Assembly: GCA_052168235.1 (NCBI GenBank)
Contig: JBQLZK010000002.1
Span: 32,001 to 96,000 of the forward strand
DNA: 64,000 nt
Source: Thainema sp.
GTDB taxonomy: Bacteria > Cyanobacteriota > Cyanobacteriia > Phormidesmidales > Phormidesmidaceae
Reading direction: 5' to 3'
In this document: positions 1 to 10,971 of the stretch, piece after piece
How positions within the stretch are numbered: the stretch's first letter is position 1
Layout of the letters: each line of letters opens with the position of its first letter
Translations under genes and position numbers: made by a program
The notes under the pieces: generated by a model
The model's input: the letters and a program-made list of their open reading frames with translations, nothing else
Told to the model about the DNA's origin: nothing
The model's database searches: none

Positions 1-891
1 TCCTTTGGTGAACAGGCTAAAAAGAGCTTGGAAGTGTTTAGCCAGCTACGGGAAGAGTGGCGCGATCGCATTATCATGCAAGCCGTATCGCTGGTCTCTT
101 TGGACTATTTCCTCAAGCCGGAAGCTGAGCAATTAGCCGACTGGTACGCCGAGTACGGTGGGATTTTGGGCGGTGTTGCCTATATGAATCCAGATCTGGA
201 TATCCAGCTTGAACGAGTCTTTCAACTCGCGCAATCGCGAGGGTTAGATTTAGATTTTCATGTAGATGAAAGTACGGATCCCGAGGATGTGGCCCTACGC
301 CATATCGCTGAGCTGGCGCTGAAGCAAGAATTTGCTGGCCATATTGTCTGCGGTCACTGCTGTAGCCTATCGGTGCAGTCTGAGGAAGTGGCTAACGCCA
401 CGATGGACGCAGTAAAACAGGCAGGAATTGGTATCGTTAGCTTGCCCATGTGTAACCTTTATCTGCAAGACCGCATGATCGGGCGAATGCCGCGACTGCG
501 GGGCGTAACGCTGCTACCCGAATTGAAACAGCGGGACATCCCAGTTGCGATCGCAAGTGATAACTGCCGCGATCCCTTTTATGCCTATGGCGATCACGAC
601 GGTTGGGAAGTGTTTCAGCAGACGGTGCGGATTGGGCAACTTGATCGGCCCTTTGGCGACTGGCCCCGTGCCAACACCTGGACGGCAGCGGATTTAATGC
701 AGCTTGAAGATGTGGGGCGGATTAGTGAAGGCAACACGGCAGATTTAATTGTCTTTAAGGCCCGGAATTTGAATGAACTAGTGGCGCGATCTCAACATGA
801 TCGGCTCGTTCTGCGTAAAGGACAACCGATTGATACCACCCTGCCAGATTATGCTGAATTAGATGATTTGATGCCCTTGGAGTTAGGTTAA
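1..891 (+). CDS. Cytosine deaminase-like metal-dependent amidohydrolase (5' end outside window)
   Basis: Frame open from base 1. Motifs DFHVDE, GHCCSL, VSLPMCNLYLQ and ASDNCRDPFY are typical of the CodA family. Confidence 0.85.
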   Translation, partial: SFGEQAKKSLEVFSQLREEWRDRIIMQAVSLVSLDYFLKPEAEQLADWYAEYGGILGGVAYMNPDLDIQLERVFQLAQSRGLDLDFHVDESTDPEDVALRHIAELALKQEFAGHIVCGHCCSLSVQSEEVANATMDAVKQAGIGIVSLPMCNLYLQDRMIGRMPRLRGVTLLPELKQRDIPVAIASDNCRDPFYAYGDHDGWEVFQQTVRIGQLDRPFGDWPRANTWTAADLMQLEDVGRISEGNTADLIVFKARNLNELVARSQHDRLVLRKGQPIDTTLPDYAELDDLMPLELG

Positions 892-2418: not shown

Positions 2419-3708
2419 GTGAAACGAGTGCTTGCAATTATTTTAGGGGGCGGTGCGGGAACGCGGCTTTATCCGCTAACCAAGCAGCGTGCCAAGCCAG
2501 CAGTATCGTTAGCAGGTAAATATCGTCTTATTGATATTCCAGTTAGTAACTGCATCAATTCAGGAATTCTTAAAATCTATGTTTTAACCCAGTTCAACTC
2601 AACATCGCTCAATCGGCATATTGCCCGAGCCTATAATTTCTCGGTCTTTAGCGATGGCTTTGTTGAAGTGCTGGCTGCACAGCAAACTCAAGAAAATCCA
2701 AGCTGGTTCCAGGGTACAGCGGATGCTGTACGCCAGTACCTCTGGCTACTGAAAGATTGGGATGTAGATGAGTATCTCATCCTTTCCGGTGATCATCTGT
2801 ATCGGATGGATTACGGCAAGTTTGTTGAACACCATCGCGAAACAGGCGCAGATATTACCTTATCTGTACTGCCCATCGATGAAGAGCGGGCCAGCAGCTT
2901 TGGCCTGATGAAAATTGACGATAGCGGTCGGGTGATCAACTTTAGCGAGAAGCCCAAGGGCGACGCGCTGAAGCAAATGCAAGTAGACACAACCACTCTT
3001 GGTCTAGATGCAGAGGCGGCAAAGGTTAAACCTTACATCGCTTCAATGGGAATTTACATCTTTAAAAAGCAGGTTTTGATTGATCTGCTTCAGCAATCTA
3101 AAGATGAAACCGATTTCGGTAAAGAGGTTATTCCCAGCGCGATCGACACCCATAATCTGCAAGCTTACCTGTTTGATGATTACTGGGAAGACATCGGAAC
3201 GATCAAGGCGTTTTATGAGTCCAATTTGGCTCTAACGAAACAGCCTCGGCCTAGCTTCAGCTTCTACGACGAGAAAGCACCGATTTACACTCGTCCTCGT
3301 TTTCTGCCACCGACCAAGATGCTGAACTGCGAAATCACGGAGTCGATTGTGGGTGATGGCTGCATTTTGAAAAACTGCCGCATTCATCACTCAGTGCTGG
3401 GAGTTCGTACCCGCATTGATGAAAACTGTGTAATTGAAGATTCCCTGTTAATGGGTTCTGATTTCTATCAGGCTTCTGAAATGCGTGTTCATGCTTTCAA
3501 AGAGGGACAAGTACCGATGGGCATCGGTGAGAATTCCGTCATTCGCGGTGCCATCATCGATAAAAATGCTCGTATCGGCAAAGATGTGAAGATCATCAAC
3601 AAGGACAACGTTGAAGAAGCCGATCGGGAAGATCAAGGCTTCTTGATTCGCAACGGTATTGTCGTCGTGGTCAAAAATGCGGTGGTTCCGGATGGCACGG
3701 TGATTTAG
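2419..3708 (+). CDS. glgC: Glucose-1-phosphate adenylyltransferase
   Basis: GTG start after GGAGG gives [29 protein letters not shown]; also WFQGTADAV; 429 aa. Confidence 0.97.
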
Positions 3709-3835: not shown

Positions 3836-4201
3836 TTATCGTTCTGTTGATTGCGGTTCTGGTGCAGCTCTTAAAGCTCGTAGTTCTGCTTCTAGTCCTT
3901 CAATCCGCTGCTGGAGCTGACGGTTCGATTCCAATAGTTCTCGCGATTGGCCGCTGAGATAAGGATCGCTTTCCCACCAGTTGATACCGATCTCCTTGGC
4001 TTTATCCACTGAGGAAACGAGTAGACGAATGCGAATTGTCAGCAGTTCTGTAGAACCAACGGAGATCGCAATATCGCCAGCGATGACGATGCCTTTATCG
4101 AGTACCCGCTCCAGCACATCGGCTAGAGTTGAGGCTTGAGTCGATGTGGCGATTGGGCGTTGAGGGCTACTTTGGGGACGGTTATAAGTAGTGCCAGTCA
4201 T
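3836..4201 (-). CDS. gvpJ: Gas vesicle protein GvpJ
   Basis: LADVLERVLDKGIVIAGDI...GINWWESDPYLS; lies downstream of gvpN. Confidence 0.9.
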   Translation of the reverse strand: MTGTTYNRPQSSPQRPIATSTQASTLADVLERVLDKGIVIAGDIAISVGSTELLTIRIRLLVSSVDKAKEIGINWWESDPYLSGQSRELLESNRQLQQRIEGLEAELRALRAAPEPQSTER

Positions 4202-4280
4202 GGATTACCTAGTTAGTCAATAGACTCAGGGTTGGGACGGCCAGTCTGCGATCGCAGTTCACTTCGCCAAATGGCTAAAG

Positions 4281-5810
4281 CTAGCGAATCTTAAACATGG
4301 ATGGCTTGCCTTGTCCGCCCACCTGAGTGATTAAGCCGAGTTCAGCAAGGCGCTTGAGCGCATTTACAGTTTGGAAACGGTTCAATCCCAAGGCGGCCTC
4401 TAGCTGAGATAGCCGAGCTGGGCCATCCGTGTTGAGCTGCTTGTAAACTGCGATCGCATCGGGGTTTTGGATGCGGGCAGCAGGGTCTGCCGCCGGAGCT
4501 GCTTTGGTGGCCGTTGCTTTTGCAGGTGCAGCTGATTGAGCTACCGCTGATTGAGCCGTTGTCGGCTGATCAGCAACTGGTTTGGCAACGGATTGGGCGA
4601 CAGGCTGTGGACGGTTCGGGCGCGGTTCTGCCTCTAGGGTAGCAGTTGTGGCTGGTGTTGGAGCTGATTCATTGGTTTGCGGTTGAGCAGGGGGAGAGGG
4701 CGGGGAAACTGCGATCGCAGTTTCTTTCTCTACTGTTTCTACTGTTTCTATTAGCTCTATCGTTGCGGAATTAGCTGTATTCGCTGCTCCAGCACCGTTT
4801 TGTGTAGGATTCAGCTTACCGTTTCCATTAATGAACTCAGGATGCTTGGGCTGAGTCAGGGTAGCTTCCGGTTCGGTCAAATCCCGGATTTCGGTAGCTA
4901 AGTCAACACCTGGCACAATCAGGTCGCTGACGATGACGCTGTTGAACAGAGACCAGAGAATCTGACGAGCTTCGTCAACGGGGACAGCGGCGCGTGAGAG
5001 GAGAATGTCGCTGCAGGTATCGCGAAAGTCTACATCCTCCGGAACAACCCGCACATCATGCTCCTGGCAAACCTTGGCAATCATCATGCTGGCTCGCAGG
5101 CTGGACGCGCGTTCTTTGCTCGCTTTCCGCTGAAAGGCTTTTACCATACGTACGATCGCCAGTGCTGCCGAACGCTCAATATTGGTTTTCTGAACCAGGA
5201 TTTCCTGCTGGGTCAGCTCGTCCGGCTCCGGCATATCGATGGTAATTAAGCGATCCATCAGCGCATCTTGCGTACCGTGAACGCCGCAGTATTCTTCAGG
5301 GTTCGAGGTGAAAATGCCGCGAAAATGAGGATTTACTCGGATATATTCGGGCCGATTACCGCTGGGTGGTAGAACAATCAGCTTTTCCTCTAACGCCGAC
5401 AGCAGAACGTTGTTGACTTCAGGCCGAGAGCGGTTGAATTCGTCGTAAACCAGCGTAAATCCTTCCCGACAGGCCAGGGTCAAGCGGGAATCGACCCAGG
5501 TTTGCCGCATTTCGTCTTCGACTTTAATTACACTGTGGATAAAGTTATCCACCACTTTTTTGCGGGTATAGCCGGACTGGTTGCCGATTAGGTCAGAGGT
5601 TTTGTACTCATCATCGCCAAACAGCAGCATGATCGGACGACTGAGCAAATCGGCCAAGTGCATAGCCAATGTCGTTTTCCCCGTACCCGCAGGGCCGCGT
5701 AAATGAATGGAATAGCCCGACTGGAGGTAGCGGAGCGATCGGGCCGCGATGCGCTCAACGCTGGGGGTACTGACGAATTGCCGGGGGCGAGCTTGCAGAA
5801 CCGTGGTCAC
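4281..5810 (-). CDS. gvpN: Gas vesicle AAA+ ATPase GvpN with long Pro/Ala/Thr linker and C-terminal wHTH-like domain
   Basis: GPAGTGKT Walker [27 protein letters not shown] start. Confidence 0.93.
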
Positions 5811-5814
5811 GATG

Positions 5815-7089
5815 TTACCTCATTACCTTATGCACAACATAAACGCCGTCGCGTCGAACCACTTGGCCGTTACAAATTAGCGATCGCAACGCATCTACTG
5901 CTTGAACACGATTGAGATTAAGCTGACGTTCAATTTCATTCAGCCGCAGTCCACCCATTTGGTTCAGGCAGTCATAAACTGCTTGCTCCGTCACATTTAA
6001 CGATGGCTGAGCTACTGCTACTGTGGGAACCGGAATAGGTGTGATCGCAGGTGCCACCTCTTCCAGGGTTAGCGCTGGCAAAGTTGCCACGGCTGTTGCT
6101 TGGGGTGCTGCGGCTACGGGAGCAGACTGAGCAACGGGCTGAGCGGCGACTCGGACAGGTGCAGACTGTGCGGTAGCAGCCGGAACCGAGCGGGGCATAG
6201 CCGATTTCACAGCGACTTTAGCGGTTGTGGGTACAGACCGCTGGGCCACAGGTCGGCTAGGTGGGGGTGGGCTGGGTTGGCCCGACTTTTTGGCGGAGGT
6301 CGCAGGTGCTACAGGTTTAGGAGCAGGGTGGCGAGGTGGCATGGTCGAACGCACCGGGGTGCGCGCTATGATGCCGTCGGATCCCCAAACATAGGCTTGA
6401 ATTTGATTGCGATAGTCTTGCAGTTCGGTTCGAAACTCAGCGAATTCAGCAAACAATGCGTCCACTGCTACGAGACGCTCTTGCTGGCTCTGATCCAACA
6501 TCTGTCGCAGTTCAAAAATCCGCTCTTGGCGCAGCACGTCGAGTTCCAGTAAATAAGTTTCGACATCAGCTTGGAGCTGCTGCACAAACTGAGTCAGTTC
6601 CTGTTGCTGCTGGGCACTCATGGCAACGCGATCGTGACGGTGCTGGGCCAATTGAACCTGGGTAATCGTTTGCAGAGCTTGAACCCTAGCTTGGAGATCG
6701 CTGCGTAGCTCGGCTACAGCCTGCTGCATTTCAGCATGAAACTGGCTGAGCGTTTGCGAGACTTCCTGTGCCATCAGAACGCGATCTGCTGCCGTCAACG
6801 ATAGGAAATCAGCCGTTTCGGCTCGTAGAGATTCAACAAACTGGTGGAGTCGCTCGGCAACTTCAACACGGCGCACCTGCCGATCTTGAGCGGTCTGATT
6901 CAAAAAGGCTTGCGTGTCTTGCTGAAGCGCAAACGTGAACTGGCTCAAGTCATCTCGCACCTGTGCGGCTTGAATCGTGCGATCAATAGAGAAGGCAGCC
7001 AGAATATCCTGCACCTGCTGCTGCCGATTGAGAATTTCAGCCTGGCGATGTTGCCGCTGCTCTTGCCACTGTGCCTGGAGTGAAGTCAC
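5815..7089 (-). CDS. gvpC: GvpC-like gas vesicle scaffold protein with C-terminal wHTH-like domain
   Basis: Sits between gvpA and gvpN; Q/A/L/F-rich helical pseudo-repeats; GTG start after AGGAGG. Confidence 0.75.
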
Positions 7090-7517: not shown

Positions 7518-7931
7518 GGTTTAGGTTCCCTAATTTAATGCGTCAAGTACGAGATAAAGGTGAAAAACTTCAAGTTGTGAGTGAAAGATTGACGGCTCAG
7601 CGAGTGCGGAGTTAACGGAAACTATCCCTGTCCATTGGATTGGTTTACAGGTTGTTTTCTTGCCAGGTGGTGCTGTGCAAGTTGGAGGCTGAGCAATCTA
7701 CAGAGCGATGGTAACGACAATGAATAGTGATCATTGGTCAGCTATTAATCGCTTTCATTTCAATCACTTCAGTTGAAGCTATCGCTATCATTCCCAAGTC
7801 CGATTTGAAAATCGCTATACAGGGCGATTAAAGTTAATGAAACGCAATGATGTTGTTGCAACCGTTGATATAGCAGTGCGGTTGACCTGTTGTTGAGGGG
7901 TTCTGAGGGGTGCTGAAGGGTGCGATCGCGC

Positions 7932-8555
7932 TTATCCACTTGCCGGATTGTTTGGGTGGAGCTGATCGGTTTGCCAATTGGCCGGATTTGTCTGGATGTA
8001 GTATCGAATCTGCTCTAGCGATTCTTTGTTACGGATAATGTGTTCGTAATAATTGCGCTGCCAAACGGGGGTTCTGGGTGTATTTCTCAGGAGATTAATG
8101 CGTTTAGTTGCCGTCGATTTGAATCCGGTTATGAATGACGATAATGAACGTGGCCGCATGAATGGCGTCACATGTTGTATGGGTGAATGACCGTTCTGTA
8201 GGGGCGAATGGCCATTCGCCCCTACGGGATTTTGCGGCTGATTAGACACCTGGGATGAATTATCTGATACCTGTTGTGATGTTTTGTCCTGAATAAATAC
8301 GATGCCGTGAATGTGATTAGGCATGATAACCCAGGCATCCAAATTGATTTCTTGTCGGATATTTTGCGATCGCAACCATTCCTCGGCAACAATTTGCCCC
8401 AATGAATCTAATTGCATTTTGCCATCAACAATATCGCCGAATAAACATTCGCGTTGATGAGTGCAAATGGTAATGAAATACGCGCCTGGTGATGAATAAT
8501 CGTATCCGTTGAGGCGAATGGAACGACGATGATGTTTATCCGGGTTGTATTTCAT
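7932..8555 (-). mobile_element. REP-associated tyrosine transposase (RAYT, Y1 HUH family)
   Basis: HRRSIRL..YDYS..GAYFITICT, MPNHIHGI (HUH), WQRNYYEHIIR, YIQTNP. Identical REPs lie inside and upstream. Confidence 0.9.
8198..8225. repeat. REP palindrome class 1 (inside RAYT ORF)
   Basis: GTAGGGGCGAATGGCCATTCGCCCCTAC, a perfect 28-bp palindrome with GTAG ends. Confidence 0.9.
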
Positions 8556-8642
8556 GCGAGATGGATTTGATGCACCAATGATTTAGGATGCCCATGTTGT
8601 TATTTGAATTCGTAACCCTTGTTGGAAGCACCATAACGATAT

Positions 8643-8670
8643 GTAGGGGCGAATGGCCATTCGCCCCTAC
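8643..8670. repeat. REP palindrome class 1 (upstream of RAYT)
   Basis: Identical 28-mer. Confidence 0.9.
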
Positions 8671-8797
8671 GGGGTGTTTGCACTATCCCAGATCCCCAAT
8701 CATGATTGGTGCCAGGTATCGGATCTCCGGAACGATGATTCTTCGTAAGGAACAGCCCTGGAAATAAAAGTTTAGGAGAAACGGAAAGCTTTATGCC

Positions 8798-10570
8798 TTA
8801 CACTTTACAAGTCTGGATGCGAGAGAAGAGACTCCCCTCCCCCGACCCACACCACAAAACCCACACCCACTCCCACTCCCCGAAAGGGAGGTGGCCTTGG
8901 GGTGCTGAGGTGCTAAATGTTACATCAAAGTAGTAAATATACGAGCCGTTCACTCTCCATCCAGTGCGATCGCAGAATTCTCCCCAAATCTTATCACCTG
9001 GATATTTCCCGTCGAGCTTGGCTCCACACTGGACGTAAATTTCTTTTTGCACGCTGAAGCCAAATTGACCGTTGCTGTACTTCACCCACAGTCGATCTAT
9101 CGTTTTCAGATCCGCACAGGGGAAGTTTAAGAGTTCTTCTGATTTAAGCAAGTCGCCTGATTTCTTCCCAACTGCCCGGATCATCACTTCGTAGGTTTCT
9201 TTGTCCGCCTCTTCCCACTCACCCGCCTTCAGCAAATCCCGCAATCGCGTATAGTTAATCCCCTTGTCCGAAGCCAAGCTAACTGTTTCTGCGATTTCAT
9301 GGAGCGCACTTTCTACGGCACTATGCATATGCGCCCATAAATGAATCGTGCTGTTAAATACTTTTTCCCCAAGGAGAGCTTTTTCTTTGCTATCCAAACC
9401 TGATAAAGCATGTTGCGCACTTGTTTCTGTGCTTACCTGTAGTTCGTAATTAGTTGCATTTTTTTCAGGTGTGGATGAAAACGAGCCTTTAGAAGCTTGG
9501 GAAGGTTCTAAGATGTGCGCTTCAATCTTCTGCACATCCTCATCCCGCAGTTGCTTCCGATCTTGAATTCGCTTCAGTTTTCGTCGCTGTAACTCATCCA
9601 GCGGATACTGCTGAGCAATCGCGGTCTGAAATGCACGCTGATAAAACTCAACGCGCTCTTTCAGTTCCCTAAACGGCTGAAGGATAGACGATTCAATCGC
9701 TTTCGCATCAGTTTCAGATAAATTTAACTCATCCCGAATATCGTCCAAATCTAGCCGATCCAGCTCGCTAATGAATCCCTGATTTTCCTGAACAACTCGC
9801 TCTACCTCTTGCCGATAGCGCAACTTCGGATCGCCAAGCGCCACCTTTGCCAACTCAATCCGAAATCCCTCGTCCTTCAAAACAATGATTTTTGGAGACA
9901 TCGCAGGTGCTGCTTCTTTCACCTTTAGCTCAGCATACTGGTGCAGCTCATCCACTGAGATTTGCCCGTCTTTATTCAGGTCGGCTGCCCCTGTCTCAAT
10001 ACCTTCAACCAAATAGCGCGTGTAAATCGACAAGTCTGAACCCGGTTGCTCAAATGAATATTGCACCGCACTTGAAGAAGTCAGCACGACTCTTCCCTCT
10101 GCACCAAGCTGTTCAACCAGATTTAATGCTCCATCATCTTTAGCGGTTAAATTACCAAACGCACCACTAAAGCAACAGTCCAAAATCACCACCTGCCGCC
10201 GCGCCCGACTCCGCAAAATGCACTCATGCACAAACGCAGCATCAAGCGCAGTTGAACTAATCAAAAAATCACCATCTTTGCGGGTATTACTGGCTGCAAA
10301 ATACAGCTTGCCTCGATCATCTTTGACCCCATGACCCGAAAAATAGAGCAGCGCTAGATCATCTCGTTGCCGTCGTCGGAACCAGGTTTCAATTGTTGCA
10401 GCGATTTCCCCATTAGTTTGGTCAATTAGTGTTTGTACGTCATCGAAGCAGCCGATTTCTGGATTCTGCAAAACTGCCTGCAACGCTACTACATCCTTCG
10501 GTGCCGCAGGTAATGCCTTGAATCCTTTTTGATATTGACTGGTGCCGATGAGCAGTGCCGTTTTCGCCAT
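8798..10570 (-). CDS. Caspase-family (peptidase C14, EACC1-associated type) protein with C-terminal GUN4-like domain
   Basis: KTALLIG, YFSGHG (His) and ILDCCFSG (Cys). C-terminal YTRLRDLLKAGEWEEADKET...IDRLWVKYSNGQFGFSVQ...PQGHLP is the GUN4 signature. Confidence 0.88.
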   Translation of the reverse strand: MAKTALLIGTSQYQKGFKALPAAPKDVVALQAVLQNPEIGCFDDVQTLIDQTNGEIAATIETWFRRRQRDDLALLYFSGHGVKDDRGKLYFAASNTRKDGDFLISSTALDAAFVHECILRSRARRQVVILDCCFSGAFGNLTAKDDGALNLVEQLGAEGRVVLTSSSAVQYSFEQPGSDLSIYTRYLVEGIETGAADLNKDGQISVDELHQYAELKVKEAAPAMSPKIIVLKDEGFRIELAKVALGDPKLRYRQEVERVVQENQGFISELDRLDLDDIRDELNLSETDAKAIESSILQPFRELKERVEFYQRAFQTAIAQQYPLDELQRRKLKRIQDRKQLRDEDVQKIEAHILEPSQASKGSFSSTPEKNATNYELQVSTETSAQHALSGLDSKEKALLGEKVFNSTIHLWAHMHSAVESALHEIAETVSLASDKGINYTRLRDLLKAGEWEEADKETYEVMIRAVGKKSGDLLKSEELLNFPCADLKTIDRLWVKYSNGQFGFSVQKEIYVQCGAKLDGKYPGDKIWGEFCDRTGWRVNGSYIYYFDVTFSTSAPQGHLPFGEWEWVWVLWCGSGEGSLFSRIQTCKV

Positions 10571-10971
10571 TAACGCGGATTGATGATGTTGACCTTTATT
10601 TTAGAGAGTCGCAGCCGCTCAATGGTTTGAATCTGTTGTTCCAAATCCTTTTGCGTTTGGTACACCAGTTTATAGCGTGCGCCATCTTCTTCGTACTCAA
10701 TTTCCTTTAGTCTGCCCGGAAACCGATTACCAAGGAACTCCAGCACCGTTCTGGCATTTGCCCACGTCACCTCTGCAAACAAAATTCCTTGCAGAAAAGC
10801 CCCAACACCCTTGCTACCTTCAGGTACTTCAGACTCTCTCGCGAGACGGGATTCCAAAGCAACCTCACGGATTTCATCAGCCAAATTCAACGTGTCTTGC
10901 TCTAGCTGTTCTGGATCATCATTTAGACCAGCCTGGTTGATATCAATCAAAATTTGAAAGGTTTCAGTCAT
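10570..10971 (-). CDS. EACC1-like small membrane-associated partner of the caspase
   Basis: D.E.LE..T..L..E.RE...VPEGSKG plus a hydrophobic stretch; TAATG stop/start overlap with the caspase gene. Family call from recall. Confidence 0.65.
   Translation of the reverse strand: MTETFQILIDINQAGLNDDPEQLEQDTLNLADEIREVALESRLARESEVPEGSKGVGAFLQGILFAEVTWANARTVLEFLGNRFPGRLKEIEYEEDGARYKLVYQTQKDLEQQIQTIERLRLSKIKVNIINPR

Follow-up and report, generated by a model that had tools for sequence, protein, structure and literature searches.

A G-rich tract at the end of a cyanobacterial caspase-GUN4 gene belongs to a fast-changing, probably frame-tolerant sensor linker

The stretch of 64,000 nucleotides from Thainema sp. 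analyzed in this study (contig JBQLZK010000002.1, positions 32,001 to 96,000; referred to as the window) encodes, on its minus strand, a caspase-GUN4 protein of 590 aa (8798..10570), whose gene contains a G-rich tract close to its 3′ end (8834-8881). This tract represents the gene's own copy of a fast-changing linker that ends many cyanobacterial GUN4 sensor domains. Furthermore, it is probably part of a sensor linker that is remade by insertions and deletions (indels), tolerates changes of the reading frame, and is embedded in a three-part 3′ architecture of GUN4 paralogue genes. This architecture comprises (I) a conserved GUN4 core ending in the residues GHLP, (II) a linker of ~30-200 nt lacking codon structure and translated as a Gly-, Val-, Trp-, Phe-, Cys-, and Leu-rich peptide, and (III) a DNA block of ~125 nt providing a tail and a TAA stop codon in three frames, the far end of which meets a convergent Y1 gene in relatives. 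Among the relatives, the architecture occurs together with a compositional bias at the DNA level, recurrent changes of the frame, wholesale replacement of the linker, and an association with Y1 genes.

The tract, reading GEWEWVWVLWCGSGEG on the reverse complement of 8834-8881, is in frame with the open reading frame (ORF) 8798..10570(-). It is composed of 32 G, 12 T, 3 A, and 1 C, with 14 out of 16 codons ending in G and seven tracts of at least three G, including a canonical G-quadruplex (G4) motif at 8860-8881(-). These counts, as given in the initial annotation of the window, were all obtained again upon recounting. The location reported there was also borne out, but the residues preceding the tract are GHLPF, not GHLP, and the full variable stretch extends from 8831 to 8884. 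This stretch, the linker FGEWEWVWVLWCGSGEGS (minus strand; 54 nt, 18 codons from F to S), contains both the tract and the G4 motif and features 89% G+T and 61% G. Scanning of both strands revealed the G4 motif to be the only canonical one in the window. Single-base richness per 48-mer amounted to 32 in the tract and at most 25 elsewhere in the window (mean 12.2, standard deviation 3.2). In the codon reference for the window (9,508 codons from 25 Pfam-supported ORFs), G occupied the third position in 26.3% of the codons, the probability of at least 14 out of 16 being P = 5e-7, and GGG represented 11.2% of the Gly codons, compared to 4/4 in the tract; the tract thus disregards the codon habits of its host. 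In a G4Hunter-like scan, the top 25-mers of the window were located at 8831-8858 (score 2.04), and folding of the tract with ViennaRNA gave -24.2 kcal/mol with the G-quadruplex option and -7.5 kcal/mol without it, values that are indicative, the G4 terms not being calibrated for DNA. The longest G run in the linker measures 5 nt, the hexamer GNGTGG occurs three times in imperfect form, and the tract holds neither a long homopolymer nor a perfect tandem repeat of the kind known from phase-variable simple repeats. The tract is real and non-random. The next G-richest 48-mers of the window (24-25 G) were found at 2213-2224 and 6229-6292 (+), and G4Hunter-like scores of at least 1.5 were also recorded near 2200, 4700, 6250, 7900, 32650, and 41600.

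A search with the GUN4 part of the protein yielded 2,086 relatives, the best being 78% identical over the domain, and the protein's own cluster comprised one member, indicating that the protein database holds no close orthologue of the window gene. The closest GUN4-domain relatives were cyanobacterial and included two metagenome-assembled genomes of the Elainellaceae. When 20 GUN4 domains taken from caspase, TIR, and other architectures were aligned, the core was 60-72% identical up to GHLP, followed by an unalignable stretch and then by a conserved tail; among 120 proteins listed, the stretch between GHLP and the tail varied in length and sequence and was rich in W, G, V, L, F, and C. At the DNA level, 80 genome loci of relatives were taken, the window's own genome not being among them, and 58 linkers, 56 of them distinct, were delimited (15 units without a recognizable tail anchor were excluded). 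The G+T content exceeded 50% in 56/56 linkers (median 0.70, with a range of 70-95% cited), compared to 0.45-0.55 in the domain bodies, and the window linker ranked fourth in G+T and first in G. In the 55 linkers from outside the window (3,465 nt), the first, second, and third codon positions featured 69.6/68.6/72.8% G+T, compared to 55.9/46.5/46.4% in the domain body; at four-fold degenerate sites, G+T was 415/557 (74.5%) compared to 1,173/2,858 (41%; chi-square P = 3e-47). Accordingly, comparison of the paralogues at the DNA level, as suggested in the initial annotation, revealed that they share both the G+T bias and the excess of variation.

The composition of the linker peptides, with a 1.7-2.6-fold enrichment of G, V, F, W, and C, follows from the DNA, since codons built from G and T alone stand for no residues other than G, V, W, C, L, and F and never for a stop. 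Because A and C are scarce on the coding strand of the linker, a stop codon is seldom formed in any frame: 15 of the 56 linkers were open in all three forward frames, as against 2.1 +/- 1.4 for body segments of equal length. The G4 motif, which had been regarded as a defining feature of the tract, does not hold this role in the family, being present in canonical form in only 8/56 linkers. In genes annotated as WD40, CHAT, and AAA-like (AP018319.1, NZ_CP024793.1, and NZ_CP054694.1; L081, L082, and L084), divergent GUN4-like ends carry GSLP, PSLP, or GELP instead of GHLP, followed by the same conserved block; judged from translation rather than base composition, their linkers are not visibly Gly-, Val-, or Trp-rich.

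The conserved 3′ DNA block common to the GUN4 paralogue genes is present in the window as a single copy at 8708..8833 (-; nhmmer E-value 1.4e-27). It was found after 70 out of 73 GHLP sites, was matched in 71 of the 80 genome loci, and is conserved between cyanobacterial orders through the stop codon and beyond. Its triple-frame tail-and-stop part (8791..8830, -) encodes LFSRIQTCKV followed by TAA (8798-8800) in the frame used here, and the stops of the other two frames are the TAA codons at 8805-8807 and 8791-8793. Within the first ~45 nt of the block, the three frames give the tails xLFSRIETCKL*, SLLSHRDL*, and SSLASRLVNCNI*, each of which opens with L-x-S-R/H and reaches its own TAA. These domains have three known endings, which are therefore three reading frames of one DNA, and any linker length gives a complete protein. 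In the alignment of 70 sequences used for the frame classes, between 71% and 93% of the sequences shared the majority base of a column across the first 40 columns of the block (bins of ten columns), and in an ungapped comparison, mean pairwise identity was 0.69 in its first 46 nt, compared to 0.51 at third positions of the body.

The offset between GHLP and the block, modulo 3, was 0, 1, and 2 in 34, 14, and 22 of the 70 sequences. The frame class, mapped onto a tree of 69 domain bodies, required 30 changes, compared to a mean of 29.3 after shuffling, and when well-supported branches alone were considered, at least 9, 9, and 8 changes were counted for the three classes, each taken singly. Being distributed on the tree in a random-like manner, the frame has been switched many times. 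Several loci bear duplications at the borders of the linker, namely three partial copies of the first ~20 nt of the block in L059 (~3391-3500), tandem blocks in L039 (2798-3008) and L079, and a duplicated GHLP in L047 and L012, which point to duplication and deletion at both borders; in addition, a duplicated peptide was found in L056. Regarding other functions of this DNA, no Rfam family reached its gathering score in the 64 kb (8500-9000 gave only noise at E-values up to 10), and scanning of 7800-9100 for promoters and terminators revealed none in the block. Tandem heptamer repeats of the AGTCAAA or CAATTCG type directly follow the block in six Nostocales loci (L007, L024, L029, L061, L037, and L054).

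Comparisons between related loci illustrate how the linker changes. In five syntenic Nostoc orthologues, the flanks are well aligned and mostly identical, whereas the linkers are unalignable and differ in length. For one such Nostoc pair, L057/L061, identity amounts to 80% and 87% in the 60-nt flanks and to 41% in the linkers, which measure 46 and 28 nt; for the tandem paralogues of Lyngbya PCC 8106 (L073), the corresponding values are 98% and 92% for the flanks and 62% for the linkers (33 and 34 nt). Among protein cluster representatives, domain pairs of 80-90% identity had unrelated linkers in 35 out of 38 cases. These comparisons indicate that the linker is replaced wholesale and faster than point substitution allows. 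A sharply bounded variable block at the C-terminal end of the GUN4 sensor of an EACC1-type caspase, as previously suggested for the window gene, is hence seen both in the alignments and in the syntenic Nostoc loci.

The caspase-GUN4 protein consists of an EACC1-associated caspase (aa 4-218; PF00656, 3.8e-18), a middle part (aa ~220-433) without a Pfam match, and a GUN4 paralogue domain (aa 434-571 according to Pfam; PF05419, 7.1e-39). The caspase was assigned to the EACC1-associated type NF047832 with 181.7 bits (cutoff 140) and the GUN4 domain to its family with 133.6 bits (cutoff 29.2). The conserved GUN4 core (aa 434-562; 8885..9271, -) ends in GHLP, where homology to solved GUN4 structures stops, phmmer alignments to 4ykb, 1z3x, and 1y6i (E-values 1.6e-17 to 3e-14) terminating at GHLP+1. 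In Synechocystis GUN4, Leu210, Arg214, and Arg217 of the alpha6/alpha7 loop hold the porphyrin, Arg214 being essential (as described in passages of PMC1084334), and the LxNxLR motif following GHLP is conserved in GUN4 orthologues and lost in paralogues (according to an excerpt of PMC10156173). Where a true GUN4 features LxNxLR with Arg214 directly after GHLP, the window protein reads FGEWEW. Taken together, the stop in homology and the lost motif indicate that the linker replaces the ligand-contact stretch (Leu210/Arg214/Arg217) of true GUN4, and the Arg or His of the L-x-S-R/H tail may stand in for the pocket arginines.

EACC1 proteins have been described as pore-forming effectors released by their caspase, and EACC1 caspases as being fused to diverse sensors, including ones diversified by diversity-generating retroelements (DGRs; both in the excerpted part of 10.1101/2025.11.14.688446). 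In the window, a 133-aa ORF (10570..10971, -) overlaps the start of the caspase; it is EACC1-like by position alone and gave no match in Pfam, NCBIfam, or PADLOC. The PADLOC profile PD-T4-6 matched aa 424-589 with its positions 295-448 of 450 (E-value 2.6e-44), indicating that at least one profile of this defence family has a GUN4-like domain with linker and tail at its end. Membership in PD-T4-6 was rejected, the N-terminal kinase part of the profile being unmatched and the window protein starting with a caspase.

On the far side of the block, a subclass-specific profile detected a Y1 gene or its relic at 31 out of 67 loci (those in which the block is followed by 800 nt or more of sequence), all of them convergent and 14 near full length. 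This Y1 (HUH) gene encodes ~255 aa, and its surviving stop codon lies inside the far end of the block or within ~10 nt of it. Conversely, when plasmids were searched for the Y1 gene first, 4/4 places keeping its 3′ end faced a GUN4(-like) gene or the block; intact pairs are carried, for example, by the Nostoc plasmids NZ_CP024793.1 and NZ_CP060823.1. The Y1 family is 69-80% identical across cyanobacterial orders (best 120 matches, all cyanobacterial where the source was named). Its members feature NHVH, FWE, and YIHANP, a length of 246-258 aa, and a C-terminal extension, and score 67-73 bits with REP_Tyr_transpos, below the cutoff of 80. Since TnpA_REP subclass 2.1, corresponding to group 1 of the transposases associated with repetitive extragenic palindromes (REPs; RAYTs), is characterized by NHVH, W[EQ], Y[IV]HxNP, ~240 aa, a C-terminal extension, and the lack of a REP (PMC6006769, Table 1), the Y1 partner appears to fit this subclass by its motifs, length, extension, and absence of REPs. 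Genes of the 23S_rRNA_IVP, Uma2, GIY-YIG, and DUF559 types were also found downstream of the block in relatives. The 23S_rRNA_IVP genes (four-helix-bundle, Avd-like) stand just after the block in L037 (1469-1846), L054 (3679-4056), L007 (3602-3967), L020 (1768-2151), and L024 (3605-4114); in the first four, they lie between the block and a Y1 relic, as if replacing part of the Y1 gene, and L024 gave no Y1 match.

The initial annotation had considered nicking by an HUH nuclease and had pointed to a RAYT and its REP downstream of the stop codon. Both elements are located as claimed, 128-243 bp beyond the stop, and the HUH idea holds insofar as a Y1 family, a different and subclass-2.1-like one, faces the GUN4 genes of relatives; the RAYT and REP of the window are not this partner. 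The REP hairpin (8643..8670), a perfect 28-nt palindrome starting with GTAG, marks the point where homology to the GUN4/Y1 arrangement breaks, and the RAYT (7932..8555, -) belongs to another subclass (NHIH, WQ, YIQTNP). An identical second REP (8198-8225) is inserted in frame within this RAYT, splitting the Y1 domain between the HUH and Tyr motifs. As a REP inserted in a RAYT is typical of subclass 2.4 (PMC6006769), the motifs together with the in-frame REP place the window RAYT close to that subclass. It is a later arrival and a neighbor rather than the conserved partner of GUN4. Inside the block, the last codons (WCQV to the stop) of a lost convergent Y1 gene are visible at 8707..8748 (+) when the translation is compared with the C-termini of intact relatives; ~4 codons are recognizable, with nothing recognizable upstream of them. 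The Y1 partner of the window has been lost to the REP/RAYT insertion, and the tract is therefore probably a standing product rather than an active site.

Concerning the mechanism, we propose that the linker is remade through insertions, deletions, and duplications at its two borders. The source of these border changes could be slippage in G runs or a Y1 enzyme that cuts single-stranded DNA and joins it again, and the G-rich non-template strand would favor single-strandedness. The resulting changes may retune the lid over the ligand pocket of a sensor controlling an EACC1-type caspase. The TnpA_REP of E. coli cuts single-stranded DNA at CT dinucleotides, leaving a covalently bound end that can be joined to another 3′-OH (reported in passages of PMC3479197), and the block begins with a CT-rich run. 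A bolder version, which we regard as tentative and rather doubtful, is that a domesticated Y1/HUH enzyme of TnpA_REP subclass 2.1 acts as a template-free diversity generator rewriting the G-rich GUN4 lid at the border of the block. If true, every insertion length would be productive, since an equivalent tail and stop are reached in each of the three frames of the block, and the system would represent a bacterial counterpart of junctional diversity, driven by the same engine as proposed for prochlorosins.

Several observations weigh against an indel-remade linker or against the putative part of the Y1 enzyme. Near-identical sequences do not differ in the linker: in 70/70 domain pairs of at least 90% identity, the linkers had the same length, none falling below 50% linker identity, and the linker DNA of L066/L069 and of L034/L048 was identical, so that the variation on short time scales expected from the initial annotation was not encountered. 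Five loci (L028, L062, L064, L075, and L076) have in-frame stops in the linker, beside it, or in the tail, as would be expected if some copies simply decay; they may reflect either such decay or errors in the assembly of G runs. The bias runs towards G+T and not merely away from A, for which the proposed process gives no reason, and CT and AG dinucleotides in the linkers are not depleted beyond base composition. Linker G+T was 0.754 with an intact Y1 gene (n=13), 0.742 with a relic (n=11), and 0.708 with none (n=46), the link between Y1 status and composition thus being weak. No conserved DNA was found beyond the start codon of the Y1 gene, and the classical IS200 structure is not supported; G-rich inverted repeats of the TIRYT type were represented by a motif near 2 of the 14 Y1 genes, with no G-rich arm on the far side. 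Likewise, RNAalifold predicted 0 pairs and no conserved hairpin on the sense strand of the 47 aligned block copies, and the subclass-specific Y1 profile had no match in the whole 64 kb (best E-value 6.5). Finally, an AlphaFold2 model of the domain (alignment of 20 rows) reached a predicted local distance difference test score below 50 for residues 128-167 and is uninformative on the lid or the tail helix.

Part of this evidence would agree with relaxed selection only, in which the peptide following GHLP is dispensable, the DNA drifts with a strand bias, the ORF runs to the first stop, and the Y1 gene is a selfish homing neighbor. The loss of the LxNxLR ligand motif in paralogues, the lack of modeled order past residue 128, the premature stops, the stable linkers among near-identical genes, the bare correlation of Y1 status with composition, and the gathering of other small mobile genes (23S_rRNA_IVP, Uma2, GIY-YIG, DUF559) downstream would all be accommodated. 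Nevertheless, we consider this explanation unlikely, since it does not predict that linkers avoid stops in three frames (15/56 compared to 2.1 in the control), that a tail with L-x-S-R/H and TAA is kept in three frames at 71-93% column majority and 0.69 compared to 0.51 identity, that a G+T content of 70-95%, far in excess of usual strand skews, is found in 56/56 linkers, or that the Y1 family is conserved at 69-80%, in the manner of a host gene. A contingency locus, in which slippage of G runs toggles three alternative tails without a dedicated enzyme, is less probable still. G runs of 7-9 occur in 8/70 linkers, GG (1.33) and TT (1.12) are over-represented among the dinucleotides, and the many changes of frame class on the tree, together with a block accepting all frames, would suit it. 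However, 62/70 linkers have runs of at most 6, the longest run in the window linker being 5, relatives differ by wholesale replacement rather than by +/-1 nt, and the 70/70 near-identical pairs display no differences in frame or length.

Selection at the protein level alone, for a Trp/Gly/Val-rich loop contacting a ligand or a membrane and with the nucleotide bias as a by-product, could explain the 1.7-2.6-fold enrichment of G, V, F, W, and C and the position of the loop where true GUN4 binds porphyrin. It is nonetheless a very improbable account, because the bias is equally strong at four-fold sites (74.5% compared to 41% G+T) and in the use that the window tract makes of GGG and GAG, and neither sequence nor length is conserved, even between orthologues. 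Of the lowest probability, bordering on none, is the variation by a DGR or by G4-driven conversion from cassettes or paralogues as in pilE, both of which had been put forward in the initial annotation. DGR targets are similarly placed at the C-terminal end of a sensor domain, EACC1 caspases fused to DGR-diversified domains exist (excerpt of 10.1101/2025.11.14.688446), and the window linker contains a G4 motif. Against this, no reverse transcriptase (RT; RVT families of Pfam) was present in the 47 window ORFs, nor in the separately scanned 7932-8555, 8798-10570, and 10570-10971, a remote RT being still conceivable, and searching the window with 8780-8960 for a template-like repeat returned only chance matches of 10-12 nt. 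Instead of varying at A sites, the tract is poor in A, and length and frame, which are fixed in DGRs, vary here. As to conversion, a single GUN4 domain is encoded in the window, donor cassettes were not encountered, the linkers of relatives are mutually unrelated, and the G4 motif is confined to 8/56 linkers. With no RT or template found in the window, no donors seen, and with varying length and frame, DGR and cassette conversion were rejected.

The remaining surroundings of the gene comprise a gas-vesicle-like cluster downstream (3836-7089, -), including Gas_vesicle (3836-4201), an AAA_5 ATPase with a winged-helix end (4281-5810), and a 424-aa ORF (5815-7089, -) with a weak match to GvpC repeats. 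Considering these gas-vesicle-like surroundings, the cluster is probably not a vWA-MoxR partner of the caspase. Octamers of the HIP1 type (GCGATCGC), which we take to be typical of cyanobacteria, are located at 7922-7929, 8366-8373, and 8966-8973.

The arrangement of linker, block, and Y1 gene is previously undescribed. In the literature searched, no description of it was found and no paper joined RAYT terms with GUN4, the combination of GUN4, 'hypervariable', and cyanobacteria returning general papers on DGRs and conflict systems only; the searched portion of PMC10156173 makes no mention of transposase or C-terminal. Few mechanisms of focused variation are known in bacteria, namely DGRs, invertases, cassette conversion, and slippage. 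Coding DNA giving a similar tail and stop in three frames is unusual and shows that changes of the frame are a regular event to which the gene has adapted. Furthermore, the variable stretch sits at the tetrapyrrole-binding place of true GUN4 and thus bears on what the sensors of caspase, TIR, and kinase effectors detect. Some of the hosts of GUN4 genes with the block are in culture (e.g., Nostoc punctiforme PCC 73102), so that the Y1 hypothesis is directly testable.

Compared to known systems, the GUN4 genes resemble contingency loci in having G runs within the coding region and frames that differ between relatives, but a frameshift here exchanges equivalent tails instead of truncating the protein, and most tracts are too short and irregular. 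In Neisseria pilE, an upstream G4 reportedly drives copying from silent cassettes; a G4 motif likewise lies near the variable coding segment here, but donor copies were not seen and the motif is limited to the minority of linkers given above. The junctional diversity of vertebrate antigen receptors and their G-rich switch regions involve G-rich filler of variable length at a fixed junction. The likeness lies only in the way of working, with a G-rich non-template strand prone to single-strandedness, whereas the parts share no homology and no sign of template-free synthesis was found here. Similar to the DGRs acting on kinase and caspase sensors of cyanobacteria (excerpts of PMC7517822 and 10.1101/2025.11.14.688446), a C-terminal hypervariable patch occurs in comparable multidomain proteins; unlike in DGRs, an RT, a template repeat, and an adenine-specific pattern are lacking here, length and frame change, and the fold is GUN4 rather than C-type lectin.

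The closest precedent appears to be the pairing of procA with tnpA_REP in marine picocyanobacteria, likened here by its description rather than by intergenic DNA. In that pairing, a tnpA_REP gene of subclass 2.1 lies opposite procA; the sequence and distance between the two genes are conserved, the variable core is rich in indels, and a G4 is predicted at the border (bioRxiv 10.1101/2020.03.09.984088). The authors saw no strong evidence for or against causality and reported that the closest cyanobacterial TnpA_REP relatives are not located beside lanthipeptide genes (same source). In both systems, a conserved 5′ coding part is followed by an indel-rich, variable C-terminal coding part, the coding strand carries a G-rich, G4-prone border, and the likeness is completed by a convergent subclass-2.1-type Y1 gene, many truncated Y1 relics, and conserved intergenic sequence and distance. 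In the window, the conserved intergenic sequence beside a sharply bounded variable part is present (8708-8833, E-value 1.4e-27), and the convergent Y1 gene at a conserved distance is absent, being found in 31/67 loci of relatives. The target differs from procA, which encodes a lanthipeptide precursor, in being the GUN4 sensor domain of signaling and defence proteins in filamentous cyanobacteria, and neither the triple-frame tail-and-stop block nor the G+T bias at all codon positions has been described for procA. The GUN4 genes therefore represent, after procA, a second, independent, and much broader case of a variable C-terminal segment standing face to face with a TnpA_REP-type gene.

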